A DNA stretch of 64,000 bases from Vicinamibacterales bacterium (lineage in GTDB: Bacteria; Acidobacteriota; Vicinamibacteria; Vicinamibacterales; UBA8438), in NCBI GenBank assembly GCA_965247955.1, contig OZ252042.1:1584323-1648322 (forward strand). The letters are read 5' to 3'. This document shows, one piece after another, positions 9,041 to 33,425 of the stretch. Below the pieces are notes generated by a model. It did no database searches. It had not been told where the DNA came from and worked only from the letters and a program-made list of their open reading frames with translations. A program made the translations under genes and the position numbers. Every line of letters starts with the position of its first letter. The first letter of the stretch is position 1.

Positions 9041-11740
9041 TCAATCCTGTTCCTCTTGCATTTGTTCCAACACTTTGCCGAGTCGGTCGATTTGCTCACC
9101 GTACCTGGTCCAATTGCCCTCCCGTTGTGCCTCGAGGGCCAGAGCGTAGTGCTGCTGGGCCTGCAGCGCAAGCGTGTCCGCCATAGAGACACTCGCAGGT
9201 GTCGCTGTTTTGGTCTGGGTGAGATTAGCCACGAACGTTACTGGCGATGACGGGGTTCTGACGGGCGCCGATCCGAAGATGCGGTTCAGGGCATTATCCA
9301 GCGTTTCCTCCATTACGATCTGATTCTGGTAAGCGACGATGACCCGTTTGAGTTCCGGGATGCGTCCCCCGGACGCTCGCAAATAGAGCGGGCGGATATA
9401 GAGCAGCGATTCTTCGATCGGGATGACAAGTAACGTTCCCTGGATCACCTCAGATCCCTGTTGGTTCCAAAGGGTGAGTTGAGGGGAGATCTCCTGATCC
9501 TGGTTGATCCGGGCCACGATTTGTGAAGGCCCGAACACAACCTTCTGCTTGGGGAATTTGTAGACGAGCATCTTGCCGTAGTGCTCGCCGTCGCTGCGAG
9601 CCACCATCCACGCTGCCAGGTTGTTCTTGCCACGCGGCGTAAATGGAAGCATCTGGATGAACTCGGCTCGTTCCTCCGTTGGTAGCTTCATGATCGTGTA
9701 GTACGGCTCCATCTGCTCGTTATCGATCACCGGAACCTCCCACTCGTCTTCCCGGTTGTAGAAGACCGAAGGGTTGGTCATGTGAAAGATGGAGTACATG
9801 GATGTTTGAAGCTTAAAGATCCCTTCTGGGTATCGAAGATGACTCTGAAGTGCTACCGGCATTTCATCTAGCGGCTGCAGAAAATCTGGAAACACTTTAT
9901 CGAGCGTTAAGGCAATCGGATCATCCATCTCAGCCAGGTAGAAGGTCGTAGTCCCGTTGTAGGCATCAATCACAACTTTCACCGAGTTGCGAATGTAGTT
10001 AATTCCTTCGCTGACTGGTGTCGAGTACGGATAGGAACCGGTCGCCGTGTATGCGTCTCGGATCCAGAAAAGGCGGCCGTCCGCGATCACTAGATAGGGA
10101 TCAGAGTCGTACCGTAGAAACGGAGCAATTGTCGTCACTCGATCTGAAATGTTCCGATGGAACAGCAGCACGCTATTCGCGCTTACCTGGTTGCTGACGA
10201 AAATTTCGTAAGAGCGGAAACGCAAACTGAAGAACAGCCGTCTGAAGAAACCGCCGATCTGGAGACCGCCGGTACCATCGTAACGCGTCGAAACATTATC
10301 TTCGCCCTCCGGGTAATGGAACTCATCAGTGCGGGTGTTGACGATCACGTAATCGTTCGAGAGCTCACCGAAGTAGATACTCGGCTGGGTAAGCACGAGG
10401 TCGGTTTCCGACCGCGGCGGTATATCCTTAACGAAGAGCACCGGAAGCCCTTCCGGTGTCACCTGGTTTACAGGTCCAAGCGCGACGCCGAATCCGTGCG
10501 TGTATTGCAATCGTTCATTTATCCACGATCGGTTGGGTAAACTGTTGGAGTTGAGTTCACGACTCGACATCATCGTCTGGCGATACTCTCCGTCCACGAC
10601 ATAGCGGTCGTTGTCGACCGACGCGAACTCGTAGTACGTGCGGATTTCCTGAATTTGCCCGAACGTGTCGAGTAACGGGAGGTGATCCCAGAGCCTGACG
10701 TTGTTGAGGGTTTCGCTGTTTTTCTTGATATCGTCGAGTGTTAGCAAAGCGTCGCCAGATACTTCCCGCTCTTCGATCTGCTCGAGATCGAACGCTAACC
10801 GCGTGGCGGCGATGTTGTTGGCGATATAGGGTGCCTCCTTTGATTGCTCGTCTGGCGTTACCACAAGTTGTTGAAGGAGCACCACTACACCACCCCCGCC
10901 GATCCAGACGAGCAAATACCCGGCGATTGCCAAGGGCATCGGCCAGAGGGCAGAAACAAACGCTGCGTATGTGGCCGCGCCCGCAGCAAGGATCGAGATC
11001 AACATCAGGATGCGAAGAAATGGAAGGCGTGCCATCACATCCACATACGACGCGCCGTGAAAGATTCCAGCTGGCGACATTAAGGTGCGTGGCATATCGA
11101 GAAACGCACTCCAGGCTAGGAGTAGGAAGCCACAGGCTACAAGTAGCGCCAGATGCCGGCGCGGCCGTTCGGTTATCTCCAGCTTCTCAGGATTCAGATT
11201 CACTTGGCCGCTGATTAAATATGCGACGGTCGACCCAATGAATGAGAGTAAGACCATGCCCAGCAGGATGTACCGTGCAAAATCGAGAAATGGTAGTGTG
11301 AAGATGTAAAATGCCGCGTCCCGTCCGAAGAGCGCGTCAGCTTCACCAAAGGGAGTCGCCTGCAGGTACTGTAAAAACACCAGCCATTGGCTCGATGCGA
11401 TGCGGGCCATGAAAAGCGACAGCAGCGCCGAGATCCCAATTGTCAGCAACCCCAGGTGTCGCTTTTCGAGCACGAGGGGTTGGAGGTCACCGCCGCCAGG
11501 AAACACGGTGTACGGACAGTGTAGGCCGCGAAGTGCAAGTCGGAAGTTCGTGAACAAAAAGCCGAAAACCCCGGCGAAAATTACGATACCGAGCAGGCCT
11601 TTAGTCGCGAGGCTCTTCAGAAAGATAGACTGATAGCCGGTTGCGCCGAACCAGAGCCACTCGGTGTAGAGATTGGCAACGTTGGGCAGCACGACCAACA
11701 GTAAGAGCGCAATCAGCGCAAGCGTAATTTTGGTGGTCAT
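9041..11740 (-). CDS. UPF0182-family large membrane protein
   Basis: 899 aa. The N-terminus has LYTEWLWFGATGY and about 7 TM helices, followed by a large soluble domain, as in the UPF0182 family. Confidence 0.8.
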   Translation of the reverse strand: MTTKITLALIALLLLVVLPNVANLYTEWLWFGATGYQSIFLKSLATKGLLGIVIFAGVFGFLFTNFRLALRGLHCPYTVFPGGGDLQPLVLEKRHLGLLTIGISALLSLFMARIASSQWLVFLQYLQATPFGEADALFGRDAAFYIFTLPFLDFARYILLGMVLLSFIGSTVAYLISGQVNLNPEKLEITERPRRHLALLVACGFLLLAWSAFLDMPRTLMSPAGIFHGASYVDVMARLPFLRILMLISILAAGAATYAAFVSALWPMPLAIAGYLLVWIGGGGVVVLLQQLVVTPDEQSKEAPYIANNIAATRLAFDLEQIEEREVSGDALLTLDDIKKNSETLNNVRLWDHLPLLDTFGQIQEIRTYYEFASVDNDRYVVDGEYRQTMMSSRELNSNSLPNRSWINERLQYTHGFGVALGPVNQVTPEGLPVLFVKDIPPRSETDLVLTQPSIYFGELSNDYVIVNTRTDEFHYPEGEDNVSTRYDGTGGLQIGGFFRRLFFSLRFRSYEIFVSNQVSANSVLLFHRNISDRVTTIAPFLRYDSDPYLVIADGRLFWIRDAYTATGSYPYSTPVSEGINYIRNSVKVVIDAYNGTTTFYLAEMDDPIALTLDKVFPDFLQPLDEMPVALQSHLRYPEGIFKLQTSMYSIFHMTNPSVFYNREDEWEVPVIDNEQMEPYYTIMKLPTEERAEFIQMLPFTPRGKNNLAAWMVARSDGEHYGKMLVYKFPKQKVVFGPSQIVARINQDQEISPQLTLWNQQGSEVIQGTLLVIPIEESLLYIRPLYLRASGGRIPELKRVIVAYQNQIVMEETLDNALNRIFGSAPVRTPSSPVTFVANLTQTKTATPASVSMADTLALQAQQHYALALEAQREGNWTRYGEQIDRLGKVLEQMQEEQD

Positions 11741-11881
11741 CGGACGCCTCGCTCCTTCTCCCCTAAGGGGCCGGAGATCCTCGCGAAACCGGCAACCGGT
11801 CTCGCCACTCCTGGAAGGTTATGTGAGCCCGGTGACGAGTGCAACCGACAAACGGGAAACTAGGGTCCTACGCAAAGGAAT

Positions 11882-13195
11882 ATGGAGCTCACGCGCCGTT
11901 CGTTTCTCGCAGCCTGCCTCGCTGCCGAAGGGGCCCGGACATTCGCCCAATCATCCGTGGGCGGACCCAACGCTGCCTGGGAAGCCCTAACAGCACCCTT
12001 AACTGAGCCGGGAAGCGCCGTTGCTCCCCAGGGCTTTCCATGGAATGAGATAGGGCAGTTGCTCAGGGCACGCTACCGCGACCTTAGACGGCATTTCGTC
12101 TTCGAATACTACCCGTGGTACGGCAACGACCCGTTCCGGCACTGGCAGCAGTGGGACCGCGAACCACCAGTCGATATCGCCGCGAGCTCGGTTCCGCTGC
12201 TGGGTCCCTATGATTCCCGCGCTACCGCGGTCATCGAGCAGCACGCGCGCTGGATCGCCGACGCAGGTGTTGGGGTTGTCAACTTGAGTTGGTGGGGTCG
12301 CGGAAGTTTCAGCGACCAGACGACCTCACTGGTCATGGACGTCATGAGTGCACACGATATCCACGTTGCGTTTCATTTGGAACCGTACGGGCCGCAGCGT
12401 GTCGAGCGCTTGACGGAGGATCTCTCGTATCTCTTGACCGAGTTTGGCGAGAAGCGTCGATGGGATTGCTTCTTTTTCCACGAGCGTGCCGATAGATCGC
12501 AGGGACCGGTGTTTAAGCTGTTCCGCACGACCTTGCCGGAACAAATCATCGATTGCCATGGCGAGCGACAGGACATTGCTGACTACACGCCGGACAGTGC
12601 CTGGCGACGAGCGACCGATGCTGCCCGGACAGCGTTCGATGGCACCTTCGACCACCTGACTCTGCTCTCAGACACTTGGGATGCGGCACGAGTCGCGGCA
12701 GCAGGCCTCGACGGTATCGCAATTTACGATCCGGTCATCGAGCGGGAGGAGTGGCTCGACCACGCACTCACTGCCTCACGTCTCGGCTTGGTATATTCCT
12801 TCAACACTAATCCAGGGCTGGACGAAATTGGCAGGCGTGGACTTCCTCCTGACTCCTGTCTTGTGCCGAGGCCTTTCTTGCCGACCGCACCAGATCTGGC
12901 GTGGACCAAGTTCGAAGATCGGGAGCGTTCCAAATTTCTCAGTGAGGCACGTATCCGCGAGACTCTCGAATGGTCCCTGCTACTTCAGATACACCCGTGG
13001 CTCGGGAATGCCAAACACGGCTTCTTCCTTATCTACATCACGTCGTTCAATGAATGGCACGAAGGCCATCAGTTCGAGCCGATGAAGTCGTATGCGGTGC
13101 TCACGCCGGAAGAGCTGGTCCACAACTACCACAATCCGAACGACGGTTTCTACCGACTCGATCAGCTGACCGATCTATTGCGACGTTTACAGTAG
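11882..13195 (+). CDS. GH99-like glycoside hydrolase (endo-alpha-mannosidase-like) with twin-arginine signal
   Basis: It has a TRRSFL TAT motif. FEYYPWYGN, VNLSWWGRG and ITSFNEWHEGHQFEP resemble GH99 signature blocks. Confidence 0.65.
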   Translation: MELTRRSFLAACLAAEGARTFAQSSVGGPNAAWEALTAPLTEPGSAVAPQGFPWNEIGQLLRARYRDLRRHFVFEYYPWYGNDPFRHWQQWDREPPVDIAASSVPLLGPYDSRATAVIEQHARWIADAGVGVVNLSWWGRGSFSDQTTSLVMDVMSAHDIHVAFHLEPYGPQRVERLTEDLSYLLTEFGEKRRWDCFFFHERADRSQGPVFKLFRTTLPEQIIDCHGERQDIADYTPDSAWRRATDAARTAFDGTFDHLTLLSDTWDAARVAAAGLDGIAIYDPVIEREEWLDHALTASRLGLVYSFNTNPGLDEIGRRGLPPDSCLVPRPFLPTAPDLAWTKFEDRERSKFLSEARIRETLEWSLLLQIHPWLGNAKHGFFLIYITSFNEWHEGHQFEPMKSYAVLTPEELVHNYHNPNDGFYRLDQLTDLLRRLQ

Positions 13196-13829: not shown

Positions 13830-13940
13830 AGTAGACCGGGTCTTTCACGATCGGCAATAATTGAGAGGAAGGCGCGACCGACGTGGGCAATAGCGTGGAT
13901 CTTTGGCCTAGCTGCCGAAGGAATAGTTTAAAGCCTGGGA

Positions 13941-14171
13941 GTTCGCGGTTCGCCAATCCATCTTTCTATCTCATGATTTCTAGGCAGGTCGTTATAGCTC
14001 GCGAACTGTCCGGATAATTTACAATCGAGCGGCGCTGATGATTTGGAAGATACTTTCGAAGAAATCGATCGAGACTGCATAGGTGATTCTCTGCACGACT
14101 AACGTGTGAGTTATCGCGAACGCTCCTAGAATTTTTGATAGACCAGTATCCGAATTTAGCGAAACGCGAAC
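13941..14171. promoter_or_regulatory. cluster of four CGCGAAC motifs in a 375-bp AT-rich spacer
   Basis: The copies are GTTCGCG at 13941-13947 (inverted), TCGCGAAC at 13999-14006, TCGCGAAC at 14114-14121 and ACGCGAAC at 14164-14171. The outer pair shares GCGAA-N-CGCGAACTC. Confidence 0.3.
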
Positions 14172-14219
14172 TCTGTTACGGCTAGACAAACATCACGCAA
14201 AGGAGTGGATCGGGTAGTG

Positions 14220-14651
14220 ATGACTAGGAAATATCAACAGCGTGGTTATCAAGACGCCGACCGCGCGCCAGAGGGGAAGCGTCAACCAAGTGACGAAAAG
14301 CGCGAGCGTGGTCCAAGACGCGGGTACGGCCCGCGCGAACCGCGCAAGGTTAACATGCCTGGCTTCCGCGACGTGCTGAGATGTGCGCGTTGCGGGACGA
14401 TGATTGGCTTACCCATCCTGTTTGACACCCAGTGCCCCAAGTGTGTGAGCGATCTCCATAGTTGCGCCCAATGCACGTGGTTCGACACCGGAAGCCGATT
14501 CGAGTGCACTCAGCCAATTCCTGAACGCGTCCTACCGAAAGACTCTCGTAATACCTGCACCTCCTTTGAAGCACGCGTTACCGTCGAACGGGAGACCCAC
14601 TCAGCCGGCCCGCGAAACGCGCGGGAGGCATTTGATGACCTATTTAAATAA
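14220..14651 (+). CDS. Cys-rich zinc-ribbon protein with basic N-terminal tail
   Basis: It has CARCG..CPKC..CAQC cysteine pairs and an Arg/Lys/Glu-rich N-terminus. The start could be GTG 14205, GTG 14217 or ATG 14220. Confidence 0.65.
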   Translation: MTRKYQQRGYQDADRAPEGKRQPSDEKRERGPRRGYGPREPRKVNMPGFRDVLRCARCGTMIGLPILFDTQCPKCVSDLHSCAQCTWFDTGSRFECTQPIPERVLPKDSRNTCTSFEARVTVERETHSAGPRNAREAFDDLFK

Positions 14652-14714
14652 GGACACAACAGGTAGGAATTAGGAGGCCTTCCACCTCAGATTTCCGCCC
14701 TCAGAGAATTCTTG

Positions 14715-15340
14715 ATGGGTACTCCAGACGACATTGCTGCTCAACTAGCCGCGTTATCAGCTCCGGTGCGACTCGTTTTCTTCACCCAGACGTTCGGCTG
14801 CAACACTTGTTTGACGGCACGTCAGGTCGTAGATCAGATCGCAAGTCTTTCAGAGCAGATCACAGTCGAGGAACACAACATCGTCCTCGACAAGGAAAAG
14901 GTCTCGGAGTACGGCATTGAACGTGTGCCGACCCTCGCCATTGTAGGAGAGCACGACCCCGGCATTTGCTACTGTGGCGTGCCCGCCGGTTACGAACTGG
15001 CGTCGATCGTCGACGCGATTATGCTGGTGGCTCGCGGAGAGGCAGGGTTGACCAAGGAGAGTCTGGCCTCGCTGGCAGCCCTCGACCGGCAGGTCGAGGG
15101 CAAGGTCTTTGTCACCCCGACCTGAACGTTTTGTCCCCAGGGGTCAGTCTGGCTTATCGGCTCGCGGCCGCAAGTCCTTTGGTTCGCGCGACAGTGATCG
15201 AAGCCACGGAGTTTCCGGACCTCGTCCAACGCTACAAGGTCACCGGCGTTCCAAAGACCGTCGTCGATGACCAGGTCGAGATTCTTGGAGCACAGCCCGA
15301 AGAGGTCTTCGTGCAGCAGGCTTTGCAGACGGCCGAATGA
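14715..15340 (+). CDS. glutaredoxin-like protein disulfide oxidoreductase (two thioredoxin-fold units); second active site reads TGA-T-F-C and a 1-nt frame change follows
   Basis: Unit 1 has FGCNTC. Unit 2 reads KVFVTPT-TGA(15123-15125)-TFCPQ, then continues in the other frame as VSLAYRLAAASP..IEATEFPDLVQRYKVTGVPKTVV. The frame change lies in the CCCCAGGGG run at 15135-15143. Confidence 0.6.
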
Positions 15341-15586
15341 GACTATCGTCCCGGAGCAGGGTGCCCGCACGCCCGATCGTTTTGGCCGCTCTGCTGTCTG
15401 TGCCTGGTACCCTTACGGTAGGCTGACCTTGGTGCACTGGTCGGGCACTGACTATTCGTCGGATAGTTACACGGTTTCCCGTGTCCGGCTCGTGACCATG
15501 GAATCAACAGCCGGTCCCTTCACGCCTGTACAACGAGCTTTCCCCCAGCATTGTCTAGGGAGCAAGCAGTAGGAGAGATGCTTCTT

Positions 15587-16321
15587 TTAGAATCTTGCCA
15601 CCACTGCAGCCGACACCTTGACGTCGGTTTTCTCAAATCCAGGTACTGGGTCGTTCAGGAACGAGACCTGGTACGACAATTTCAAGGATAGAAGGTTGTT
15701 AAGTCCTGCTAAGAGTGAGAAGTCATTCATCAAGCGCCAATATTTTTGATCACGGACGCCCACGGTCGTCGACAGGTCGTTGGTGAGCGCGCTGTTATCG
15801 GAAAAAGCCCAGGCGTAGGTGGCTGAGACGTTGGCGGTCGACAGGCTGCGATTCTCGGTGGTCGCCCTGAACTCCAGCGTTCCGCCGATTCCACCTCGTG
15901 CTGTGAGGATGTGAGACCCTTCAGGGATTGCACTGTACGAGATTCCCCCCTCCACGGCGTACCGACCATCGATGCCGGCGAACCGATCGCTCAGATACTC
16001 TCCCTTGGTATACACGCCGAATCGCTCGTGTAGGGCTCGGGTCCCTCGGAACTTGGCGTCGAGCGATCGGGCATTGATAGCATCGTCGGCTTCGCTACGG
16101 ATGAACGACACTCTAATTTCGGTCAGCCACAGCCTGGGAGCGTAGTCGAAGCGTGCTCCTAGGCCCAAAGTCTTCGTATTGGAGTTCCCAGATGTTCCGA
16201 CGAATGACACCTCAACCTCTCCCGACCACGTCCGTCCCTCCTCCTCCTGCGCATATACGAGGCACGGGACCAGCTTGAGGATTAAGGTGGTGACCAGCAA
16301 AATTAAGTAGGTGCGTGGCAT
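15587..16321 (-). CDS. DUF481-family outer-membrane protein (YdiY-like)
   Basis: It has a signal peptide, then W.GEVEVSFVGTSGNSNT and a beta-barrel repeat pattern ending in F. Confidence 0.7.
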   Translation of the reverse strand: MPRTYLILLVTTLILKLVPCLVYAQEEEGRTWSGEVEVSFVGTSGNSNTKTLGLGARFDYAPRLWLTEIRVSFIRSEADDAINARSLDAKFRGTRALHERFGVYTKGEYLSDRFAGIDGRYAVEGGISYSAIPEGSHILTARGGIGGTLEFRATTENRSLSTANVSATYAWAFSDNSALTNDLSTTVGVRDQKYWRLMNDFSLLAGLNNLLSLKLSYQVSFLNDPVPGFEKTDVKVSAAVVARF

Positions 16322-16350
16322 AGACTGATCATTGGAGGATTCTGTCGTGC

Positions 16351-18840
16351 ATGGCGATTATTGATGGTCGATACGACTATGATCATTCTAGAAGCATGAA
16401 GGTCGAAACACGCGATCCCGTCTGCGGGATGGAGGTTAATTCCGAGACAGCCAAGCACGCCTACGATTACCAGGGGACCCAGTATCTCTTCTGTTGCGAA
16501 GGGTGCAAGACGGCATTTGCGCATGACCCCGATCGATTTCTCGGCGGCAAACCGGTGTCTGCATGCCACCACCATACGCCAGCTCGTAGTTTTAAGTCTC
16601 CAGACCTCGCGGGGACCACCTATGTGTGCCCCATGTGTCCAGACGTGCGCGAGACCGAACCGGTCCCGTGTCCCAGTTGTGGAATGACGCTCGAACCAGC
16701 CGTTACCGCCGACGCGGTGACGGATATCGAATACACCTGCCCGATGCACCTGGAGATCGTCAAGGTCGAAGCTGGTGCCTGTCCGGTCTGTGGGATGGTA
16801 CTCGAGCCCCGCAGGGTGGGGTTGCAAGAAGCACCAAACCCGGAGCTGACTGACATGACGCGGAGGTTCTGGATCGGTGCAGGAATGGGGTTCCCAGTGT
16901 TCGTGCTAGCAATGGCCGAAATGGTGATCGGTAACCGCCTGAGCGATCTGATTCCCCACGTTACATCAAATTGGATCCAGCTCGTTTTCGTTACGCCGGT
17001 TGTGTTGTGGGCTGGCCGGCCGTTCTTCCAGCGCTGCTGGGCGTCGATTTTGAACCGCAGCCCAAACATGTTTACCTTGATCGGGCTCGGAGTCGGATCT
17101 GCTTATCTCTACAGCGTTGCTGCGACCATTGTTCCAGAGTTCTTTCCGGAAGGTTTTCGAAGTGGCGCCCATGTTGAGCCTTACTTCGACACGGCGGTCG
17201 TCGTCATCGTCCTCGTGCTTCTCGGGCAGGTGCTTGAGTTAAAGGCGCGTCACCGCACAGGAAAGGCGCTCCGTGAACTGTTGAGCCTCACGCCTGCAAT
17301 TGCGCATCGCCTGCACGAGGGCGACGAGAAGGATGTGACCCTCGACGAGATCCAGGTCGGCGATATTCTCCGCGTGCGACCGGGGGAACGGATCCCGACC
17401 GACGGGGTTGTCATCGATGGTCATAGCACGGTCGACGAATCGATGATCAGTGGCGAGTCGATTCCGGTGGAGAAGACCTCAGGCACGCAGGTGATTGGCG
17501 CGACTGTTAATGGCACCGGGAGTCTCACGATGCTGGCCGACCGGGTCGGCACGGAAACGCTGCTTGCACAGATCGTTCGGATGGTAAGCACGGCGCAACG
17601 AAGCCGCGCACCGATTCAAAGGCTTGCCGACCGATTAGCAAGGCATTTTGTGCCAGCTGTCGTATCGGTTGCGATCGTCGGATTCGTGGCGTGGAGTGTG
17701 TGGGGGCCTGAGCCTCGTTTAGCGCTGGCACTGACAAGCGCGGTAGCCGTGCTAATTATCGCCTGCCCGTGTGCCCTCGGGCTGGCGACACCAATGGCGA
17801 TCATGGTCGGCACCTGGCGCGGTGCAACGGCCGGTGTGCTCATCAAGAACGCCGAAGCACTCGAGACACTTGAGCGGGTAGACACACTCATCGTCGATAA
17901 GACGGGAACGCTAACCGAAGGCAAGCCGCGTGTCCAAACGGTGACCGCAATATCGGGTGTTCGGGAGGACGAGCTGGTCCGTCTAGCCGCTGGGTTGGAG
18001 CGGTTAAGTGAGCATCCGTTGGCGGATGCCATCGTTGAGGAGGCAGAGCGGCGTGGCTTATTGCTTCCCTCCGTCACCGGTTTCCAGTCGGAGACTGGCC
18101 GAGGTGTTACGGGGAGTGTCGATGGGAGACCTGTCGTCCTGGGGACCCGGAGTCTGGTTGAAGATTGCGGGTTCGACGTCTCGTCGCTGGCCGACCAGGC
18201 CGAGGCACTACGCCACCGTGGTGAGACGGTCATATTTGTGGCAATTGGTGGACGGACCGCTGGTCTGTTAGGGGTGGCCGATCCGATCAAAGATTCGACA
18301 CCAGAAGCTATCCGGCTCCTGCGTGCCGATGGGCTTCGGATCGTAATGGTCACCGGCGACAGCCGCCAGACGGCCGAAGCGGTGGCCGCCGGCGTAGGGC
18401 TCGACACTGGTGACATCATTGCAGAGGTGTTGCCGTCCGACAAACGGCGCCTCGTGGCGGAGTGTCAGGCGTCCGGTCAGGTAGTCGCGATGGCGGGTGA
18501 TGGAATCAACGACGCACCGGCTCTGGCCGAAGCGGCTGTTGGGATCGCTATGGGCACTGGAAGCGACGTTGCGATGGAGAGCGCCGGTATCACGTTGGTT
18601 AAGGGCGACCTGCGTGCGATTGTTCGCGCGCGCCGGCTGAGCCGTGCCACGATGCGGAACATCCGGCAGAACTTGTTTCTTGCCTTCGTCTACAACGCGC
18701 TCGGTGTGCCGGTGGCTGCCGGTCTCCTCTACCCCGTAATAGGGCTCATCATTAGTCCGATTTGGGCTAGTGCAGCGATGACGATGAGTTCACTTTCCGT
18801 TATTGGTAACGCTCTTCGTTTGCGGCGCGTCACCCTGTAG
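16351..18840 (+). CDS. copA: Cu(I)-translocating P1B-type ATPase with TRASH/YHS and two CPMH/CPxC metal-binding modules
   Basis: Motifs present are DKTGT, the CPC in TM6 ([13 protein letters not shown]), YN and MSS TM motifs, and GDGINDAP. The N-terminus has [29 protein letters not shown] and [14 protein letters not shown]. Confidence 0.9.
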
Positions 18841-21058: not shown

Positions 21059-21799
21059 CTACTCCAGGAGGGCCGCCTCCTCAGCTAACCACGTATCGAA
21101 GTCTGCTTGCGTCTGGACTGTGACGGCCCCGCGCATCCGGTAGTGACCAAGACCGCAGAGCTGGGAGCAGTTGACTTCGAAGCTGTCAATGACGGTTGGT
21201 ACCCACCACACCGGAATCTGCATCCCCGGGATGGCATCCTGTTTAACCCGCATCTCCGAGATACCCATACTGTGGATGACATCCTGCGTGGACAAGTAGA
21301 CGATGACCGGCTTGTCGACCGGGAGGTTCATCTGGTTGATCGTGTGAATGTCATCTGCCCCATTGGGATCGCTCCGATCGAGGCCGATGCCGTTCGTCGC
21401 GGTGATCAGGCTGATATCGCGACGGCCGAACCGGCCATCCGCACCAGGATAGTGCGTGTGCCACTCGAACTGTTTCGCGATCATGTGCACGACCGTTGAC
21501 TCTTCCTCTGGCGGGAACTCATTGACTCGGTTGGCCCACGCCGGAATAGCGAACCCGACGAGCAGCACCGCTTCGATGACAGCAATTGCGATCTCCAGAT
21601 AGCTCGACGTGTGGCTCTTGACACCCGCGTAGTCGGCTGTAGGATTGGCCGCGGCACGGAAACGAATGAGGGTGTAGATGAAGAACACGCCCCAGCCGAC
21701 GAACAAAAGGGCCATCACCCAATGAACCAGGACAATCATTTGATCGATCTCGCCCGCGTGGGCAGACGCCTGGATCGGCAGCCCTAGTAGCTCCTGCAT
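21059..21799 (-). CDS. coxB: cytochrome c oxidase subunit II (CuA subunit, no fused cytochrome c)
   Basis: There are two N-terminal TM helices. The CuA ligand set is H-x34-C-S-Q-L-C-G-L-G-H-Y-R-M, preceded by DVIHSM. Confidence 0.9.
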   Translation of the reverse strand: MQELLGLPIQASAHAGEIDQMIVLVHWVMALLFVGWGVFFIYTLIRFRAAANPTADYAGVKSHTSSYLEIAIAVIEAVLLVGFAIPAWANRVNEFPPEEESTVVHMIAKQFEWHTHYPGADGRFGRRDISLITATNGIGLDRSDPNGADDIHTINQMNLPVDKPVIVYLSTQDVIHSMGISEMRVKQDAIPGMQIPVWWVPTVIDSFEVNCSQLCGLGHYRMRGAVTVQTQADFDTWLAEEAALLE

Positions 21800-22087
21800 C
21801 TACGATCTCCCTTCACGCCCGCCGGGCCGGGTGATGTCGCCGACACCTTCGTGGACCAGCGCGTGCCTCGAGCGCTTCAGCAAGTGAAAGATGAACCCAA
21901 CGAACCCGCTCAGCACACCGCCGGTTACCCCAAGCAACGTGAACACCGCCCAGTTGACGCCCTGCGCGATCGGCGAGTCGGGGTCGCCGCCGAAACAGAT
22001 CGGACAAGCCCAGCTTAACGCCGGCGCAACTAGCACGAACACGCCAGCAATCAGTGCAATTCGACACGCACTTCCTAGTTTCATCAT
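21800..22087 (-). CDS. small membrane protein with CPICFG motif, inside cox operon
   Basis: 95 aa with a signal or TM segment, then WACPICFGG and a second TM helix. Its stop abuts the coxB ATG. Confidence 0.5.
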   Translation of the reverse strand: MMKLGSACRIALIAGVFVLVAPALSWACPICFGGDPDSPIAQGVNWAVFTLLGVTGGVLSGFVGFIFHLLKRSRHALVHEGVGDITRPGGREGRS

Positions 22088-22102
22088 TGCTTTAACCCAA
22101 CC

Positions 22103-22312
22103 CTATTCCATTCCAATTTCTCTCGTCTTCCGCACGAATTTCGCTAGGTACACTGCCATGATCGTGCCAGCCAGCAGCGACCCGCCGCCGAACAGCAGGT
22201 GTCCGAACAAACCGCGCCCCGAGGTGTACATCCCGATGCCCCAGACCGTCACTACCAGCGTCATCACGATCGACGACACGATGAAAACGATGTGAATGGC
22301 ACGCAGCGACAT
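22103..22312 (-). CDS. small 2-TM membrane protein, inside cox operon
   Basis: 69 aa with two hydrophobic helices, tightly packed between the subunit IV gene and the CxxC ORF. Confidence 0.45.
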   Translation of the reverse strand: MSLRAIHIVFIVSSIVMTLVVTVWGIGMYTSGRGLFGHLLFGGGSLLAGTIMAVYLAKFVRKTREIGME

Positions 22313-22317
22313 TGGGC

Positions 22318-22671
22318 TCAGTGCGCCTCGTCCGCCGGCGCGTTGGCGTTCGGTAGCGTCATGTGCTCGCCGACCTTGTCGGCGAGTCCAAGAAGCGGGA
22401 TGAACATCAGCACGAGGAAGAAGAGGGCGGTCACCAGCAGTCCCACGTAGATCTCGCGCCGTTCATCAATCAGGTGCATGAAGTAGCTGGCGACGAGCGA
22501 GGCCTTCGCGGCGGCGATGATGAGCGCAATCGTTACTGCCAGTGGAACTGCCACGGAAATTCCGTATACCGTAGGCATGTACCACGCCAAGACGGTTACC
22601 ACCGTCAGCACCAGCAATGCGCCACTGACCCTCAGGTAGATGGCGATGTGACTCTTGACGTCTTCGCTCAT
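22318..22671 (-). CDS. cytochrome c oxidase subunit IV (prokaryotic COX4 family)
   Basis: 117 aa with three TM helices. The start SHIAIYLRVSGALLVLTVVTV is typical of the family, and GGAGG lies upstream. Confidence 0.7.
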   Translation of the reverse strand: MSEDVKSHIAIYLRVSGALLVLTVVTVLAWYMPTVYGISVAVPLAVTIALIIAAAKASLVASYFMHLIDERREIYVGLLVTALFFLVLMFIPLLGLADKVGEHMTLPNANAPADEAH

Positions 22672-22690
22672 TTAGCCTCCAACCGATCCG

Positions 22691-22719
22691 CGAACTCTGG
22701 AACCCTGGAACTCTGAACC
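22691..22719. repeat. copy a of short interspersed repeat (tandem GAACTCTGGAACC units)
   Basis: CGAACTCTGGAACCCTGGAACTCTGAACC lies between coxC and the subunit IV gene. Its reverse complement contains CAGAGTTC twice. Confidence 0.5.
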
Positions 22720-22721
22720 TT

Positions 22722-23312
22722 TCAGAGAAGGTAGAGCACTGGGAACAGGAAAATCCACACTAGGTCGACAAAGTGCCAGTACAGACCTGCTGCTTCGATG
22801 CGATTGATGAATTGTTCGCGGGACGTACCGAACATAGCCGAGCCTGGCCCGAGGAAGTAGCTATTAACGATAACGCCGCCAACGATGTGCAGCCCGTGCA
22901 AGCCCGTCAGCGTGAAATAGATGGCGAGATACGTGCTCGCCGCTGGGAGATCGCCATGCGAGAACTTCTCGTAGTACTCGTAGCCCTTGACGACCAGGAA
23001 CACCAAAGAGAGGCCGATGGTCGACCCCAGATACAGCTTGAACTTACCGAAGTTGTTTAGCTTGAGCGACGCGAAGGCCATGACCATCGTTACACTCGAC
23101 GTGATCAGCACGACCGTGTTGAAGGCACCGATCGGGACGCTGAGGATGTCCGAACCAGTAGGCCATTCAACCGCGCTGACGCGCAGAAGGACGTAAGCCG
23201 AGAACAGGCCTCCGAAGAGCATGACCTCAGACGCGAGGAACAGCCAGATGCCCAGCTTGACATTGTTCAGCCCGGTATCGGGCCGTTCGTTGACGGTATA
23301 CGGAATTTCCAT
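22722..23312 (-). CDS. coxC: cytochrome c oxidase subunit III
   Basis: 196 aa, a short 5-TM form, with LFLASEVMLFGGLF, GLHGLHV-like (TGLHGLHIVGG) and YWHFVDLVW motifs. Confidence 0.9.
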   Translation of the reverse strand: MEIPYTVNERPDTGLNNVKLGIWLFLASEVMLFGGLFSAYVLLRVSAVEWPTGSDILSVPIGAFNTVVLITSSVTMVMAFASLKLNNFGKFKLYLGSTIGLSLVFLVVKGYEYYEKFSHGDLPAASTYLAIYFTLTGLHGLHIVGGVIVNSYFLGPGSAMFGTSREQFINRIEAAGLYWHFVDLVWIFLFPVLYLL

Positions 23313-23317
23313 CGCGT

Positions 23318-25114
23318 CTACACCTTAGCGGGCTTGGCCTGTGACCTGTCCGCCTCGCCCTGCATGATGAAATCGGTCGTCGCGCCTGGCACGCTGTATT
23401 CATAAGGCCCGCGGTAGACCTGCGGCGGTGTCAAAAAGTTGCCATGCGGCGGCGGCGACGGCGCTTGCCATTCGAGCGTAGTGGCGTCCCATGGGTTCGC
23501 CGACACTTTTCGCCCCTTCTTGATACTCAGGAAGAAGTTGATGATGAAGAAGATTTGGAAGAAGGCTAGGGTCCAAGCGCCCCAGGAGATGACCGTGTTC
23601 CATACCAGCACGTCCTGGTTCATCATGTAACTTACCCCGCCATCAGCTCCTCGCCGGTTCATGCCCGAAAGCCCTTGGATGAACATCGGCATAAAGACGA
23701 CGTTGATGGCGAGGAATGAACCCCAGAAGTGAATTTTACCGAGCAGGTTGTTCATCTGCCGGCCGGTCGCCTTCGGGAACCAATAGTAGATGCCGCCGAA
23801 GAGTGCCAGCAAGGTTCCAGGCGCCACCACGTAATGGAAGTGGCCGATCACGTAGTACGTATCGTGCAGATGAATGTCAGGCGCAGCCAAGCCGAGCGGT
23901 AGACCGGTCAGTCCGCCGATGCCGAACATTGGGATGAACGCCAACGCGAACAGCATCGGCGTCGTGAAACGCATCGAGGCACCGTACAAGGAGAGGAACA
24001 TCGCCGAAAGAATCACGATCGACGGAATCGAGATGATCATCGTGGTCGTCTGAAAGAACGAACTCATCGTCGTGCCCATGCCGGTTATGAACATGTGATG
24101 GGCCCAGACGACGAACGACATGAAACCGACGAAGATGAGCGACGCAACGAGCACCCGGTAGCCCCAGATCGGTTTTCGGGTGTTGTTTGCCAGGATCTCC
24201 ACCACGATACCCATCGCCGGCAGGATCAGCACATACACCTCTGGATGTGCGAGAAACCAGAAGAGGTGCTGCCAGAGCAGAGGGCTACCACCGCCGGTGA
24301 AGTCAGCCGGCGCATCGGCGTAGACAAGACCGCTCGGCATGAAGAAGCTAGTTCCCGCGACGCGGTCCATTAGTTGCAAGACGCCGGCCGCCTCGAGCGG
24401 CGGGAACGCCAGGAGTAGGAGAAATGCGGTGACCAACTGAGCCCAGACAAAGAACGGCAGACGCATGAAGCTCAACCCTGGTGCTCTGAGCTGAATGGTG
24501 GTGACAATGAAATTGATTGAGCCGAGAAGTGACGAAGTAATCAGAAAGATCATTCCCACCAGCCATATTGTCTGACCGGTGGTAGCGAAAACCGAGAGGG
24601 GGGCATACGATGTCCAGCCTGAGTTTGCGGCCCCCCCTGGCACAAAGAAACTCGAGAACATGACTACGCCGCCAAGGAAGAACGACCAGTAGCTCGCCAT
24701 GTTGAGGCGCGGGAAGGCCATGTCTGGAGCGCCGATCTGGAGCGGAAGGACGAAATTGCCGAAGCCACCAACAGCCAGCGGAACCACCCCCATGAACACC
24801 ATTATGGTGCCGTGCATCGCGCCAAGCTGATTGTAGAATTCAGGCAGCATGATGCCGTCTGGCGTCCGGCTTGCCCCAAGCCACGCACCAATCAGTGGGA
24901 TTTCCTGGAAGGGGTAGGCGATCTGCCAGCGCATGAGCATCATTAGGCTGAAGCCGAACAGCAGGAAGAGCAGGCCGGTGATCGCATACTGGATTCCGAT
25001 CACCTTATGGTCGACGGAAAAGACGTAGGTTCGCCAGAACCCTTGGTCCTCGTGACCGTGCTCATGTGCGTGCCCGGTATGGGCTACGTGCTCGGTCGTC
25101 GTCACTTCAACCAA
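23318..25114 (-). CDS. ctaD: cytochrome c oxidase subunit I (haem-copper oxidase catalytic subunit)
   Basis: 598 aa with WFLAHPEVYVLILP, HHMF and GHFHYV signatures. The N-terminus has a His-rich tail, HVAHTGHAHEHGHED. Confidence 0.95.
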   Translation of the reverse strand: MVEVTTTEHVAHTGHAHEHGHEDQGFWRTYVFSVDHKVIGIQYAITGLLFLLFGFSLMMLMRWQIAYPFQEIPLIGAWLGASRTPDGIMLPEFYNQLGAMHGTIMVFMGVVPLAVGGFGNFVLPLQIGAPDMAFPRLNMASYWSFFLGGVVMFSSFFVPGGAANSGWTSYAPLSVFATTGQTIWLVGMIFLITSSLLGSINFIVTTIQLRAPGLSFMRLPFFVWAQLVTAFLLLLAFPPLEAAGVLQLMDRVAGTSFFMPSGLVYADAPADFTGGGSPLLWQHLFWFLAHPEVYVLILPAMGIVVEILANNTRKPIWGYRVLVASLIFVGFMSFVVWAHHMFITGMGTTMSSFFQTTTMIISIPSIVILSAMFLSLYGASMRFTTPMLFALAFIPMFGIGGLTGLPLGLAAPDIHLHDTYYVIGHFHYVVAPGTLLALFGGIYYWFPKATGRQMNNLLGKIHFWGSFLAINVVFMPMFIQGLSGMNRRGADGGVSYMMNQDVLVWNTVISWGAWTLAFFQIFFIINFFLSIKKGRKVSANPWDATTLEWQAPSPPPHGNFLTPPQVYRGPYEYSVPGATTDFIMQGEADRSQAKPAKV

Positions 25115-28061: not shown

Positions 28062-29504
28062 ATGAGCACAGCCACCCAGACCATCGAGAAGCTCACGAAC
28101 CGCGAATATAAATACGGCTTTGTGACTGATGTTGAGGAAGATCAGATTCCACGCGGGCTTACCGAAGACACCATCCGTCTAATTTCGGCCAAGAAGCACG
28201 AACCGGATTGGTTGCTCGAGTGGCGGCTCAAGGCGTTTCAGATTTGGCAGACGATGACACAGCCGAAGTGGCACAATGTCACGTTTCCGCCAGTCGATTT
28301 TCAGAACATCATTTACTACTCGACCCCCAAGCAGAAAGCGAAGCTCAACAGCCTCGACGAGATTGAGCCTGAGATTAAGGCTACGTTCGACAAACTTGGG
28401 ATTCCGCTGGAAGAACAGAAGGTTATGGCCGGAGTCGCGGTCGACGCAGTGTTCGACAGTGTATCGGTCGGCACGACGTTTAAGGAGAAACTGGCGGAGC
28501 TAGGCATCATATTCTGTTCGTTCTCCGAGGCGGTGCAGGACCATCCAGAGCTCGTGCGTCAGTATCTCGGCTCTGTCGTCCCGGCGTCCGACAACTTCTA
28601 CGCGGCACTTAACTCAGCGGTCTTCAGTGATGGCTCTTTCGCATACATCCCAAAGGGCGTCACCTGCCCGATGGAGCTATCGACCTACTTTCGGATCAAC
28701 GCAGCGCAGACCGGACAGTTTGAGCGCACGTTGCTCGTCGCCGATGAAGGGGCGGCGGTGAGTTATCTTGAGGGTTGTACGGCGCCAATGCGGGACGAGA
28801 ATCAACTACATGCCGCGGTCGTCGAGCTCGTGGCACTCGACGATTCCACCATCAAGTATTCGACCGTCCAGAACTGGTATCCAGGCGACAAGGACGGGAA
28901 GGGTGGAATCTATAACTTTGTGACTAAACGCGGGAAGGCATTCACTAACGCGAAGGTCACCTGGACTCAAGTCGAGACCGGTTCAGCCATCACCTGGAAA
29001 TACCCTAGCTGTATTCTGCAGGGTGACAATTCGGTGGGCGAGTTTTATTCGGTGGCGGTTACGAACAATCACCAGCAGGCTGATACTGGCACGAAGATGA
29101 TCCACCTCGGTAAGAACACGAGGAGCACGATTGTCTCGAAGGGGATCTCAGCTGGGTACGGGCAGAACACCTATCGTGGGCTCGTGCGAATTGGTAAGAA
29201 CGCCAAGAAGGCACGAAACTTCTCGCAGTGTGACTCGCTCTTGATCGGCGACAAATGCGGCGCGCACACCTTCCCATATCTTGAGGTCCGAAACACTTCG
29301 TCCCAGGTTGAGCACGAGGCATCCACAACAAAGATCGATGAGGACCAAATCTTCTACTGCCGGCAGCGGGGACTGCCGACCGAGGATGCTGTCAACATGA
29401 TCGTCAATGGTTTCTGTAAGGAAGTTTTCCGAGAGTTGCCAATGGAGTTTGCTGTTGAGGCGCAGAAACTGCTTGGCGTGAGTCTCGAGGGGAGCGTGGG
29501 GTAG
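28062..29504 (+). CDS. sufB: Fe-S cluster assembly scaffold SufB
   Basis: 480 aa. It has the typical SufB N-terminus ([14 protein letters not shown]) and the C-terminal block [27 protein letters not shown]. Confidence 0.95.
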
Positions 29505-29512
29505 GTGCATCC

Positions 29513-29584
29513 CTGGAGGCAGGAGAGAATAGAGATTTTCGGCGCCCTTAGAGCCGGTTAAGCCTCAGGTTGTCTACTGCCTCC
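29513..29584 (+). other. 72-nt structured element in the unusually long sufB-sufC spacer
   Basis: TGGAGGCAG (29513-29521) is perfectly complementary to CTGCCTCCA (29576-29584). Confidence 0.35.
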
Positions 29585-29616
29585 AACTTCCTTCCTACGA
29601 GAAAGCAAGAACACCG

Positions 29617-30378
29617 ATGTTGGAAGTTAAGAATCTACACGCACGCACGGGTAAGCGGCAGATCCTCAAGGGCATCGATTTATCCGTAAAAGCGGGTCAA
29701 GTGCACGCCGTTATGGGGCCAAATGGCTCTGGCAAGAGCACGCTGGCCAGCGTGCTCGTTGGTCGGGATGATTACGAGGTGACCGAAGGCACGGTTACCT
29801 TCAACGGGCAAGACCTGTTGGAAATGGAACCAGAGGAACGAGCCCTCGCTGGCTTATTCCTTGCGTTCCAGTATCCAGTGGAGATCCCTGGCGTTAACAA
29901 CGCGTATCTGCTCAAGGCCGCATTCAACGAGTTTCGCAAACATCGAAATGAAGCCGAACTCGACGCAATGGAGTTCATGACGTTCATCAAGGAACGAATG
30001 GAGCTCCTTGGCATCGATCAGAGTTTTCTTAAGCGGCCGGTCAACGAAGGGTTCTCTGGTGGCGAAAAGAAGCGCAATGAGATTTTCCAGATGGCCGTGC
30101 TCGAACCAAAGCTTGCCATCATGGACGAGACCGATTCTGGACTTGACATCGACGCGCTCCAGATCGTCGCGAGTGGTGTCAACGCCATGCGCACGCCCGC
30201 TCGTGCGTTTATTGTGGTCACTCACTACCAGCGGCTCCTTAACTACATCGTGCCAGACATTGTCCACGTGCTTTCCGACGGCCGTATCGTTAAATCTGGT
30301 GGCAAGGAGCTCGCCCTTACGCTTGAAGAGAAGGGCTACGGTTGGATCGAGGGTGAGACCGCGCAGGTAGGCGCGTGA
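29617..30378 (+). CDS. sufC: Fe-S cluster assembly ATPase SufC
   Basis: It has Walker A GPNGSGKST, the ABC signature FSGGEKKR and Walker B AIMDETDSGLD. Confidence 0.95.
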   Translation: MLEVKNLHARTGKRQILKGIDLSVKAGQVHAVMGPNGSGKSTLASVLVGRDDYEVTEGTVTFNGQDLLEMEPEERALAGLFLAFQYPVEIPGVNNAYLLKAAFNEFRKHRNEAELDAMEFMTFIKERMELLGIDQSFLKRPVNEGFSGGEKKRNEIFQMAVLEPKLAIMDETDSGLDIDALQIVASGVNAMRTPARAFIVVTHYQRLLNYIVPDIVHVLSDGRIVKSGGKELALTLEEKGYGWIEGETAQVGA

Positions 30379-31730
30379 CAGAGAGGCCTATGGCCGAACT
30401 CGCCGAAAGCCGCGACATCTATCACACCACGTTTGAGCAAATGCAGCGTGACCTACCGATGCCGGCGTTTGCTTCCGACCTGCGCGAGCGCGCCTTTGCC
30501 CGTTTTAACGACCTGGGCTTCCCGACGACCAAGCACGAGCGGTGGCGCTTCACGAATGTGGCCCCGATTGTTGGTACACTCTTCGTCCTAGCGCCGCAGG
30601 TCAAGGTCCCGGCCGCGCTGCTCGCGCCGTATCAACTTGCAAGCGTTCCGGGTCCACGTCTCGTCTTCGTGAACGGCCGATACGCCGCCGAGCAGTCGGC
30701 GATCAACGATCTTCCCGTGGGTCTGGAGGTGCGAAGTCTCGCCGAGACGTTGGCAATCGACGCAGGCGTTCTCGAGCCTTGGTTTGGCAGGGTTGCTGCG
30801 TTCGACAACGAAGTCTTTACCGCCTTAAACACCGCATTGCTGCACGATGGTGCCGTCGTGCGGGTATCCGCCAACACCGTGGTCGAGTCGCCGGTCCATC
30901 TATTGTTCGTGTCGACGGCTTCCGATAGCGATGCTGCTACCGCGATGAGTCACCCACGAGTGTTGGTGGAAGCCGGGGAAAACAGTCAGATCCGGATCAT
31001 CGAGAGCTACGCGGGAGTAAATAACGCCTGCTACTTCTCGAACGGGGTGACCGAAGTCGTGGCCGGTCCCAACGCGGTCGTTGATCACTACAAGCTGTTG
31101 CGTGACAGCATGCTAGCGTTTCACATCGCTAGCATGCAGCTGCAGCTAGCCCGGAGCGCGAACTTCTCATCGCACTCGATTACACTCGGAGGCGCGCTGG
31201 TTCGGAACGATGTTGACGCGCTGCTTAACGGTGAGGGAATTGAGTGCACCTTGAACGGGTTGTATCTGGCGAATAACCAACGGCTGGTCGACAATCACAC
31301 CACGATCCATCACGCGAAGCCGCACTGCGCCAGTCATGAGTTCTATAAGGGCATCATCGACGACCAGGCTCACGCCGTCTTTAACGGGAAGATAATCGTT
31401 GAGATCGATGCGCAGAAAACCAACGCCAAACAAACAAACAAAGCGCTGTTGCTCTCAGAGGATGCCCAGATCAACACAAAGCCAGAGCTGGAAATCTTTG
31501 CAAACGACGTGAAATGCACACACGGAGCGACGGTCGGTCAGCTCGACGAAAAGGCGCTGTTCTACCTTCGGTCTCGTGGACTTGGGAACGATCAAGCTCG
31601 AAGCGTGCTTATTCACGCGTTCGCGAGCGATCTACTGAACCGGATCGCTATTGATCCGCTCCGGGTCAAACTCGAGGCATTGCTGCTCCAACAGCTGCCT
31701 GGCGCCGCCGGCAGGACATTTCATGGGTAA
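30375..31730 (+). CDS. sufD: Fe-S cluster assembly protein SufD
   Basis: 451 aa with a SufB/D beta-helix C-terminal block ([23 protein letters not shown]). Its start overlaps the sufC stop. Confidence 0.9.
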
Positions 31731-32979
31731 CGCGACCGCGTTTCCGTTGGCGATCGAGCCACTTGACATCGACAAGATCAGGGAGGACTTTCCGATCCTC
31801 AAGCGCACGATCCGCGGCAAGCCGCTCGTCTATCTCGACAACGCCGCGACGACACAGAAGCCTCGGCCGGTGCTCGACCGGCTCGCGCACTACTACGCCC
31901 ACGAGAACTCCAACATACACCGTGGGGTGTACGGCCTTAGCGAGGAGGCGACGCGCGCCGTGAGCATAGCGCGCAATAAGGTGCAGGCCTTTCTGAACGC
32001 CCGCGCTTGCCAAGAAATTATTTTCACACGAAATTCCACCGAGAGTATCAACTTGGTTGCGCAGAGCTTCGGCTCCAGCAATGTTGGTCCTGGTGACGAG
32101 ATCTTAATCACCCACATGGAACACCACTCAAACATCGTACCGTGGCAGCTGCTCTGCGAACAGACCGATGCGGTGCTACGGGTGGTGCCGATAGACGACC
32201 GCGGTGAGCTCATGCTTGACGAGTTCGAGAAGCTGCTTGGACCGCGTACGAAGCTGGTGTCGGTCGTGCATTTGTCCAACTCGCTCGGGACCATCAATCC
32301 GGTGGCCGAGATTGTGCAGATGGCTCACGCGCAGAACGTCCCGGTCCTGATTGATGGATCTCAGGCTGCCTATCACATGCCGGTTGACGTCCAGGCGCTG
32401 GGCTGCGACTTCTACGTCTGCACGGGTCACAAGATGTACGGCCCGACTGGTATCGGAGTACTCTACGGTCGCGAGGAGCTACTGGAAAAAATGCCGCCCT
32501 ATCAGGGCGGCGGCGACATGATCCGCTCGGTGACGTTCGACAAGACGACCTACGCCAAACTGCCCTACAAGTTTGAGGCCGGGACGCCGCATATTGCGGG
32601 TGTCATTGGTTTGGGCGCTGCGGTCGATTACATCACTAGCATCGGATTCTCTAGGATCGGCGCTCACGAGAAGGAGCTACTGGAGCGCGCTACTGCGGCG
32701 CTCTCCGACGTGAAAGGGCTCCGTGTCATCGGAACAGCGCGTCAGAGGGCGAGCGTAATCTCGTTCGTCATCAAGGGCGCACATCCTCACGATGTTGGCA
32801 CGATCGTCGATACTGAGGGAGTGGCAGTCCGGACGGGCCACCATTGCACCCAGCCAGTCATGGAGAGATTTGGTGTGCCTGCGACGGTACGTGCCTCGGT
32901 GGCCATGTACAACACCCACGAGGAAATCGACGCTCTGGTCAGCGCCCTCGAGCGTGTGCGGGAGATGTTTCCGGCATGA
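31723..32979 (+). CDS. sufS: cysteine desulfurase SufS (group II)
   Basis: It has the [11 protein letters not shown] start, [12 protein letters not shown]-type lysine ([12 protein letters not shown]) and RTGHHCTQP active-site loop. ATG 31723 overlaps the sufD stop. Confidence 0.93.
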
Positions 32980-33425
32980 ATGATCTACGCGAGCTCTATC
33001 AAGAGGTCATTCTTGACCACAATAAGACCCCGCGGAACTTCCGGTCGCTCGACGGCGCCGACCGGCACGCGGACGGCTACAACCCGCTATGCGGTGACCG
33101 ACTTTCGGTTTACATAAATCTCGACGGCGACACTATTACCGACGTGAGCTTTATGGGCTCTGGGTGCGCCATCTCGAAGGCGTCGGCGTCGTTGATGACC
33201 GATGCAATTAAGGGAAAAAGCTTGGCCGACGCGCGACGTCTCTTCGAGCGGTTTCACGCTATGGTCACTGATGACACGGCGCCATCAGACCTAGAACATC
33301 TCGGTAAGCTGGCAATCTTTGCCGGAGTGCGCGACTATCCCACCCGGGTCAAATGTGCGAGCCTCGCGTGGCACACGCTGCGTGCAGTGTGTGATGACCG
33401 TAACGAACTCGTGACGACGGAGTGA
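32976..33425 (+). CDS. sufU: SufU/IscU-like sulfur acceptor (SUF-type NifU family)
   Basis: [29 protein letters not shown] and KCASLAW motifs are present. The start forms an ATGA overlap with sufS. Confidence 0.88.

Follow-up and report, generated by a model that had tools for sequence, protein, structure and literature searches.

A predicted selenocysteine-encoding protein disulfide oxidoreductase family in Vicinamibacterales and its probably disabled, frameshifted allele in one strain

In a 64,000-nucleotide stretch of Vicinamibacterales DNA (hereafter the window), a gene for a protein disulfide oxidoreductase (PDO) carries an in-frame TGA at the first cysteine position of its second redox motif. 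We regard it as likely that this gene represents a Vicinamibacterales selenoprotein family with recoding of UGA, and that the window copy is a recent, strain-specific loss-of-function allele created by a one-nucleotide deletion. Judged from its sequence, the gene is a new member, from Vicinamibacterales and broken in the window, of a selenoprotein family that is already known; the known mechanism is left unchanged by these findings. Vicinamibacterales are abundant in soil and sea and appear to use selenocysteine (Sec) routinely for a cytoplasmic thiol-disulfide oxidoreductase (TGA in 62 of 80 species representatives). The features discussed here are collected in Table 1.

The open reading frame that begins with the ATG at 14715, the start codon also used by relatives, reads MGTPDD...FGCNTC...KVFVTPT up to the TGA at 15123-15125 and then TFCPQG. 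The part upstream of the TGA encodes the first thioredoxin-fold unit, at the N-terminus, together with the opening strand of the second, and the two Cys codons of FGCNTC in the first unit lie at 14799-14801 and 14808-14810. Past the TGA the same frame runs on as TFCPQGSVWLIGSRPQVLWFARQ until another TGA, at 15195-15197. What is conserved, VSLAYRLAAASP...TGVPKTVV...QTAE, continues in the -1 frame between about 15143 and the stop codon at 15338-15340; this conserved remainder reads VSLAYRLAAASPLVRATVIEATEFPDLVQRYKVTGVPKTVVDDQVEILGAQPEEVFVQQALQTAE followed by the stop, with its end at 15340. An earlier note on this DNA had placed the TGA at the first Cys of a second CxxC motif, and the reading frame, its translation and an alignment to the Aquifex PDO bear this out. 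Its descriptions of a first thioredoxin-fold unit carrying FGCNTC and of a conserved continuation in another frame were likewise accurate. Both Cys of the first motif are invariant in all 85 related loci.

Table 1. Coordinates of the PDO gene, its recoding site and its surroundings in the window.
Feature	Position	Strand	Basis or remark
Upstream block region (block absent from window)	13830-14204 (L001 3579-9403)		comparison with syntenic contigs
Cys-rich gene, 148 codons, several CxxC pairs	14205-14651	+	directly upstream of PDO gene
PDO-type oxidoreductase gene, 5' part	14715-15125	+	136 codons and in-frame TGA; ORF, translation
First CxxC motif, C29-N-T-C32, N-terminal unit	14799-14810	+	both Cys invariant in 85/85 relatives
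Codon 85 TGC (Cys), window-private substitution	14967-14969	+	Arg in 83/85 relatives; other samples have C at 14967
Codon 129 GGC (Gly), window-private substitution	15099-15101	+	I, L, V or M in 85/85; other samples have T at 15100
TGA codon 137, predicted Sec codon, first (attacking) position of U-T-F-C	15123-15125	+	TGA 67/85, Cys 18/85
TGT, resolving Cys of UxxC	15132-15134	+	invariant in relatives
SECIS-like hairpin remnant	15137-15152	+	5' arm CCAGG without sixth base, loop GGUCA, 3' arm GUCUGG
1-nt deletion site, C missing between two G (GCG, Ala codon 143)	15141-15142	+	alignments to relatives
C-terminal 65 codons of second thioredoxin-fold unit and stop TGA	15143-15340	+	-1 frame relative to start; ORF 14966-15340; Pfam Thioredoxin_3
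Premature TGA in original frame	15195-15197	+	translation
M61 peptidase gene between PDO and DUF481 genes (absent in window)	15341-15586 (L001 10624-12524)		comparison with syntenic contigs
Terminator-like hairpin with T-rich tail, 19 nt past stop codon	15359-15374	+	consensus match only; not above shuffled expectation

We searched protein families with a mended protein in which the TGA was read as Cys and one base was restored. This query scored 227 bits, against a cut-off of 185, on the NCBIfam model TIGR02187.2 ('PDO_seleno_TRX, protein disulfide oxidoreductase'), residues 6-205 aligning with positions 7-208 of the 209-position profile, and Pfam Thioredoxin_3 matched it twice. In a phmmer search of the PDB, entries 2ywm, 2ayt, 1j08 and 1a8l were matched at 1e-36 to 1e-30 over residues 14-205; taken together, the solved PDOs of Aquifex, Pyrococcus and Aeropyrum matched at 1e-36 to 5e-24. 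The four entries, PDOs of Aquifex aeolicus and Pyrococcus, share with the mended protein two tandem thioredoxin-fold units with a CxxC motif in each. TGA-ACG-TTT-TGT at 15123-15134 aligns to the CGYC of the Aquifex PDO 2ywm, the TGA occupying the column of the first Cys. Solved PDOs have Cys (CGYC or CPYC) at the place where the Vicinamibacterales lineage is predicted to have Sec (UTFC).

The N-terminal domain of AhpF has the same two-unit fold with an active CxxC in the second unit, but in AhpF it is fused to a flavoprotein reductase domain that is absent from the window gene. Its matches were weaker than those of the PDOs (PDB 1zyn and 1hyu at 1e-8; TIGR03143 at 8e-30). We rejected an identity with AhpF because the scores fall far below the AhpF family cut-offs. 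The gene is predicted from these matches to encode a cytoplasmic thiol-disulfide oxidoreductase with two thioredoxin-fold domains, of the type seen in PDOs and in the AhpF N-terminal domain. Reductase or isomerase activity belongs to the solved PDOs and is a prediction for the window family.

TIGR02187 is listed as a UxxC selenoprotein family in two reviews, PMC13188914 among them, and traces back as such to a 2006 survey (PMC1794560), in which Acidobacteria are also reported, at phylum level, to have selenoproteins. The genes described here resemble that family in scoring above its curated cut-off, in the position of the predicted Sec, which is the first of the second redox motif, and in the coexistence of Cys-form homologues with Sec forms. 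They differ in coming from Vicinamibacterales (Acidobacteriota) and, for the window copy, in being frameshifted. Our literature search found no paper linking Vicinamibacterales to the TIGR02187 selenoprotein family.

The codon at the TGA position was compared across 85 related loci, five from contigs found by protein search (L001-L005) and 80 from a scan of GTDB species representatives, almost all of the latter labelled Vicinamibacterales or Acidobacteria. The protein search itself returned full-length Cys homologues at no more than 69% identity and three proteins of 136 aa, 81-99% identical, that stop precisely at the TGA codon. Two of the five contigs (L001 and L002) are syntenic with the window, and the first 136 residues of their proteins are 82% and 81% identical to it; the other three (L003, L004 and L005) show 99% protein identity, L003 being the nearest relative. 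All five have TGA at codon 137, after which the frame is kept up to the stop codon that they share. Across the whole set the codon is TGA in 67 loci and TGC or TGT in 18; among the 80 species representatives alone the counts are 62 and 18. The alignment of orthologues that the earlier note had proposed thus resolves this codon into TGA or Cys in every case. The position of the TGA is far beyond chance.

Every TGA copy that could be read to its end (66 of 66) has at least 68 further in-frame codons, typically 71, and the predicted Sec-site peptide of the TGA form reads FVTPT-U-TFCPQAVSLAYR. None of the 67 TGA copies carries any other lesion; scattered additional lesions, which the earlier note had named as one of three signs that together would point to a pseudogene, did not appear. 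Downstream of the TGA, the window lineage differs from L001 or L002 by 17 synonymous and 7-8 non-synonymous codon changes, which indicates that this stretch is translated and constrained. We infer that the TGA is not a lesion but the Sec codon of the family, presumably read by SelB-dependent Sec insertion. For the gene family, the selenoprotein reading first put forward in the earlier note is borne out by TGA in 67 loci, purifying selection downstream, a SECIS-like hairpin and the match to TIGR02187. In public protein sets, gene callers report the gene in two pieces, one of 136 aa and a fragment of about 50 aa. For annotation, the value of these results is that in most Vicinamibacterales the gene is to be called as one selenoprotein of 209 codons and not as a stub plus a fragment.

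The SECIS element of Escherichia coli fdhF occupies nt 15-31 counted from the U of the UGA, i.e. it begins 11 nt after the UGA. In the intact Vicinamibacterales copies, nt 15-31 form a 17-nt hairpin, CCAGGC-GGUCA-GCCUGG. Across the intact relatives it has a 6-bp stem (CCAGGC/GYCUGG) that begins 11 nt after the UGA, a 5-nt GGUCA loop and 17 nt between UGA and loop. Its predicted free energy in intact copies is -8.8 to -11.5 kcal/mol, and 64 of the 67 TGA copies reach -7.5 kcal/mol or lower (median -11.5). Published rules for bacterial SECIS elements (bSECIS) call for a loop of 3-9 nt, a stem of 4-16 bp, a G in the first two loop positions, a spacing of 16-37 nt and a minimum free energy of at most -7.5 (PMC13188914), and the hairpin of intact copies lies within all of these constraints. 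The minimal E. coli SECIS is a 17-nt upper stem-loop (PMC11431864), which in fdhF is GGUUGCAGGUCUGCACC; the E. coli element, given as GGTTGCAGGTCTGCACC, has GGUC in its loop (PMC10945757). The Vicinamibacterales hairpin resembles the fdhF element in being a 17-nt stem-loop with GGUC in the loop, but its stem sequence is unrelated, it has no bulged U and its loop is 5 nt long (GGUCA); binding of SelB is predicted.

The hairpin is also supported by its pattern of variation. Among 60 distinct TGA forms, 96.9% of cells are paired and two of the pairs show compensatory changes: C16-G30 has become A-U in six sequences, where Lys AAG replaces Gln CAG and the Leu codon has changed from CTG to CTT, and C20-G26 has become U-A in one sequence. 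In locus L045 (10403-10450), from a single species, Ala GCG has become Val GTG and Ser AGC has become Asn AAC; these two changes turn the closing C-G pair into U-A, and the hairpin is kept at -9.5 kcal/mol. The covariation score was reached by none of 500 shuffles, and slid controls fell to at most 51% paired. Whole-stretch folding z-scores were uninformative in this GC-rich coding sequence, and we therefore relied on comparative counts instead.

Folding to at most -7.5 kcal/mol is also seen in half of the Cys forms. Because the peptide PQAVSLA itself forces part of the pairing, comparison of Sec with Cys forms is the better test. The Pro codon is CCC in 55 of 60 Sec forms versus 4 of 18 Cys forms (Fisher 2.5e-8; the figures are inflated by sequence relatedness, the direction is clear), and all six stem pairs are formed in 52 of 60 versus 3 of 18, counts that relatedness likewise inflates. 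From these counts, the hairpin is SECIS-like and appears to be maintained at synonymous sites that Cys forms do not use. The contrast between Sec and Cys forms within one order offers a clean natural data set on a SECIS overlaid on coding sequence, in which synonymous sites are put to use and a change from Gln to Lys is compensated by one from CTG to CTT.

In intact copies, recoding of the UGA would follow the standard bacterial pathway: with the UGA in the A site, the hairpin 11 nt downstream (6-bp stem, GGUCA loop) would bind SelB carrying Sec-tRNA(Sec), and after Sec insertion translation would go on for 71 codons. The attacking residue of the second redox motif would then be selenocysteine (U-T-F-C) in the Vicinamibacterales lineage. 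In the window copy, the loss of one C six codons past the UGA most likely represents selenoprotein loss in progress.

At the deletion site the window reads CCCCAGG-GGTCAG, versus CCCCAGGCGGTCAG in L003, L004 and L005 and CCCCGGGCGGTCAG in L001 and L002; at the window's CAGG-GGTC, all five close relatives have CAGGCGGTC or CGGGCGGTC. The lost base is the C of an Ala codon GCG, after 15141 and six codons past the UGA; in the hairpin it is base six of the 5' arm. The deletion is unique to the window copy among 68 TGA copies, and the uninterrupted frame of the second unit that it abolishes is present in all 66 other readable ones. The deletion causes a frameshift with a premature stop at 15195 and the loss of the closing hairpin pair, and the allele can therefore yield only truncated protein. 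If the UGA terminates, the product is the first unit, of 136 aa. If Sec is inserted, it has 160 residues (136, Sec and 23 more), the last 17 being the out-of-frame tail SVWLIGSRPQVLWFARQ, and lacks most of the second thioredoxin fold. The best hairpin left in the window copy has 5 bp, a 6-nt loop and a free energy of -5.4 kcal/mol, outside the -7.5 rule, and this remnant is absent from the minimum-free-energy fold of the 65-nt stretch. The earlier note had seen here a weak CCAG/CUGG stem 18 nt after the UGA that loosely fitted SECIS geometry; that stem is what is left of a good 6-bp stem that starts 11 nt after the UGA. The alternative offered in that note, a pseudogene with two lesions, is right in that the copy is damaged by a 1-nt deletion and wrong in counting the TGA, which leaves one lesion.

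Contigs assembled separately from three sequencing runs (X1, X2 and X3) cover 14700-15400 with no differences and no gap. They are 5.6-8.6 kb long over the site, with a word depth of 4-9 per run, and 31-mers spanning the deletion occur in these three runs only. Contigs from four runs of other samples (X4, X6, X8 and X9) have a C put in behind 15141. The same gene carries two further changes private to the window, R85C and V129G. Comparison with the outgroups L001 and L002 places both changes in the window lineage, and the sister L003 lacks any such unique change. Arg85 is also present in the Aquifex PDO, and residue 129 is the first residue of the strand leading into the active site. These replacements fit relaxed constraint; they are two events only, and the upstream neighbouring gene too has two window-derived amino-acid replacements. 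We consider it highly probable that the deletion is real and lies in the DNA rather than in the data, in which case it offers a minor instance of a selenoprotein being lost in a natural population.

It is possible, though improbable in our estimate, that the window holds an intact selenoprotein gene and that the C is missing through an error of sequencing or assembly in one data set. The base is intact in all 67 other TGA copies, including the relatives at 99% protein identity, and the evidence for its loss consists of assembled contigs at low depth from runs of one sample (S1), from which the window itself was probably built; read errors of a systematic kind, or an intact allele present in S1 as a minority, may be involved. 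Nevertheless, the three separately built contigs agree exactly and run unbroken across the site, the same gene has its two private changes at near-invariant residues, and no broken genes occur elsewhere in the window: the 40 other ORFs scanned are either full length relative to Pfam profiles or have no hits, which indicates that the assembly is not riddled with indels. The homopolymer miscall suspected in the earlier note also finds no footing, as the lost base is a C flanked by Gs, outside any homopolymer run, and its absence recurs in the contigs of all three runs. Alternatively, a real deletion might be rescued if, after Sec insertion, tRNA-Gly slipped by -1 on G-GGG (15140-15143), so that two recoding events would take place within 20 nt. 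Re-pairing of the GGG at 15141-43 with 15140-42 would be perfect, GTC would come next in the conserved frame, and the product, ...U-T-F-C-P-Q-G-V-S-L-A..., would differ from relatives solely by Ala143Gly. If this were true, UGA-to-Sec recoding and a frameshift would occur in one short stretch of mRNA and the full-length enzyme would still be made. However, there is no X-XXY-YYZ heptamer and no strong structure 5-9 nt downstream, and the SECIS stem is itself weakened, to the -5.4 kcal/mol given above. No other copy needs a frameshift; because the allele is unique among the 68 and the G-GGG run exists only through the deletion, nothing has selected for slippage. We hold such a rescue to be extremely improbable, and a programmed -1 ribosomal frameshift was rejected because the frameshift site is not conserved among relatives.

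That the TGA is a true stop everywhere, in a split or decaying gene family, or a reassigned sense codon, is in our judgement very improbable. Such a stop would agree with the two pieces called by gene finders and with the lack of visible Sec machinery in the sequence searched, i.e. the 64-kb window and the flanks of the 85 loci. Against it stand the retention of TGA at the same codon across 67 loci, which represent more than 60 species, without any other lesion, purifying selection on a downstream frame without a start codon or RBS requirement of its own, and a SECIS-rule hairpin kept at synonymous sites only in TGA forms. As for reassignment, TGA ends 13 of the 33 window ORFs of at least 250 aa, and the PDO gene itself ends in TGA in the window and in all five close relatives aligned (L001-L005), which excludes a reassigned code. 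Genome-wide reassignment of UGA (codes 4 and 25) was rejected accordingly; TGA is an ordinary stop in the window and the code is standard.

None of selA, selB, selD or a gene for tRNA-Sec was found in the 64-kb window or the 85 flanks searched. By ARAGORN, the window has no tRNA and the 60 related loci scanned have no tRNA-Sec; tblastn with two queries, SelD and SelA of E. coli, gave no match in the window or the 85 loci, and a Pfam scan of 40 window ORFs showed no Sec-machinery gene. Two 94-nt 'tRNA-Arg (tcg)' calls by ARAGORN about 2 kb downstream of the PDO gene, in L057 (12333-12426) and L059 (12295-12388), were rejected as probable false positives; they have no Rfam tRNA or tRNA-Sec match at E <= 1 and lie in GC-rich, coding-like sequence. 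A crude scan of the window for other genes with in-frame TGA yielded only noise from long spurious ORFs in GC-rich DNA and no second selenoprotein candidate, and a peroxiredoxin gene near the orthologues in L001 and L002, checked for Sec, has an ordinary Cys.

The gene directly upstream of the PDO gene encodes a Cys-rich protein whose N-terminus is basic and probably disordered; it reaches the cut-off of no Pfam or NCBIfam family. In 83 of 85 loci, in Sec and Cys forms alike, a homologue of it lies upstream, ending 15-250 nt before the PDO match; it is on the same strand as the PDO gene in 82 loci and inverted in L082. No terminator-like site was found between the two genes. They look like a conserved two-gene unit and are probably co-transcribed as one operon, and from this conserved position the Cys-rich protein may be a functional partner of the PDO. 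Loci L008 and L084 carry the Vicinamibacterales-type PDO and Cys-rich pair in records labelled Alphaproteobacteria and Bifidobacterium, and are probably mis-binned or mislabelled MAG contigs. In a hydrothermal-vent metatranscriptome run (X13), a 167-nt contig is identical to 14758-14923, with the window-type alleles at 14846 and 14885, and ends short of the deletion site; the gene is therefore transcribed in a near-identical strain.

Around this unit, gene content differs between the window and the syntenic contigs L001 and L002. An upstream block of about 5.5 kb (SnoaL-like, peroxiredoxin, MacB-type ABC exporter and RND adaptor) is absent from the window, as is the M61 peptidase gene listed in Table 1. 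In L004, from the 99% lineage, a gene on the minus strand lies about 460 nt past the PDO gene, where the window has DUF481, which suggests that L004 shares the compact arrangement of the window. In L001, the M61 peptidase gene (10624-12524) and an FAD-oxidase gene (16178-16851) are each called in two pieces, and both are single genes in L002; the contig names give depths of 9x and 6x. The split genes of L001 are probably indel errors of that assembly, though its PDO gene is intact. Elsewhere in the window, genes for cytochrome c oxidase subunits and a complete SUF iron-sulfur assembly cluster (SufB, SufC, SufD, SufS, NifU-like and FeS_assembly_P) lie in 21059-25114 and 28062-33928, all of them ordinary and intact, a gene content that fits an aerobic lifestyle.
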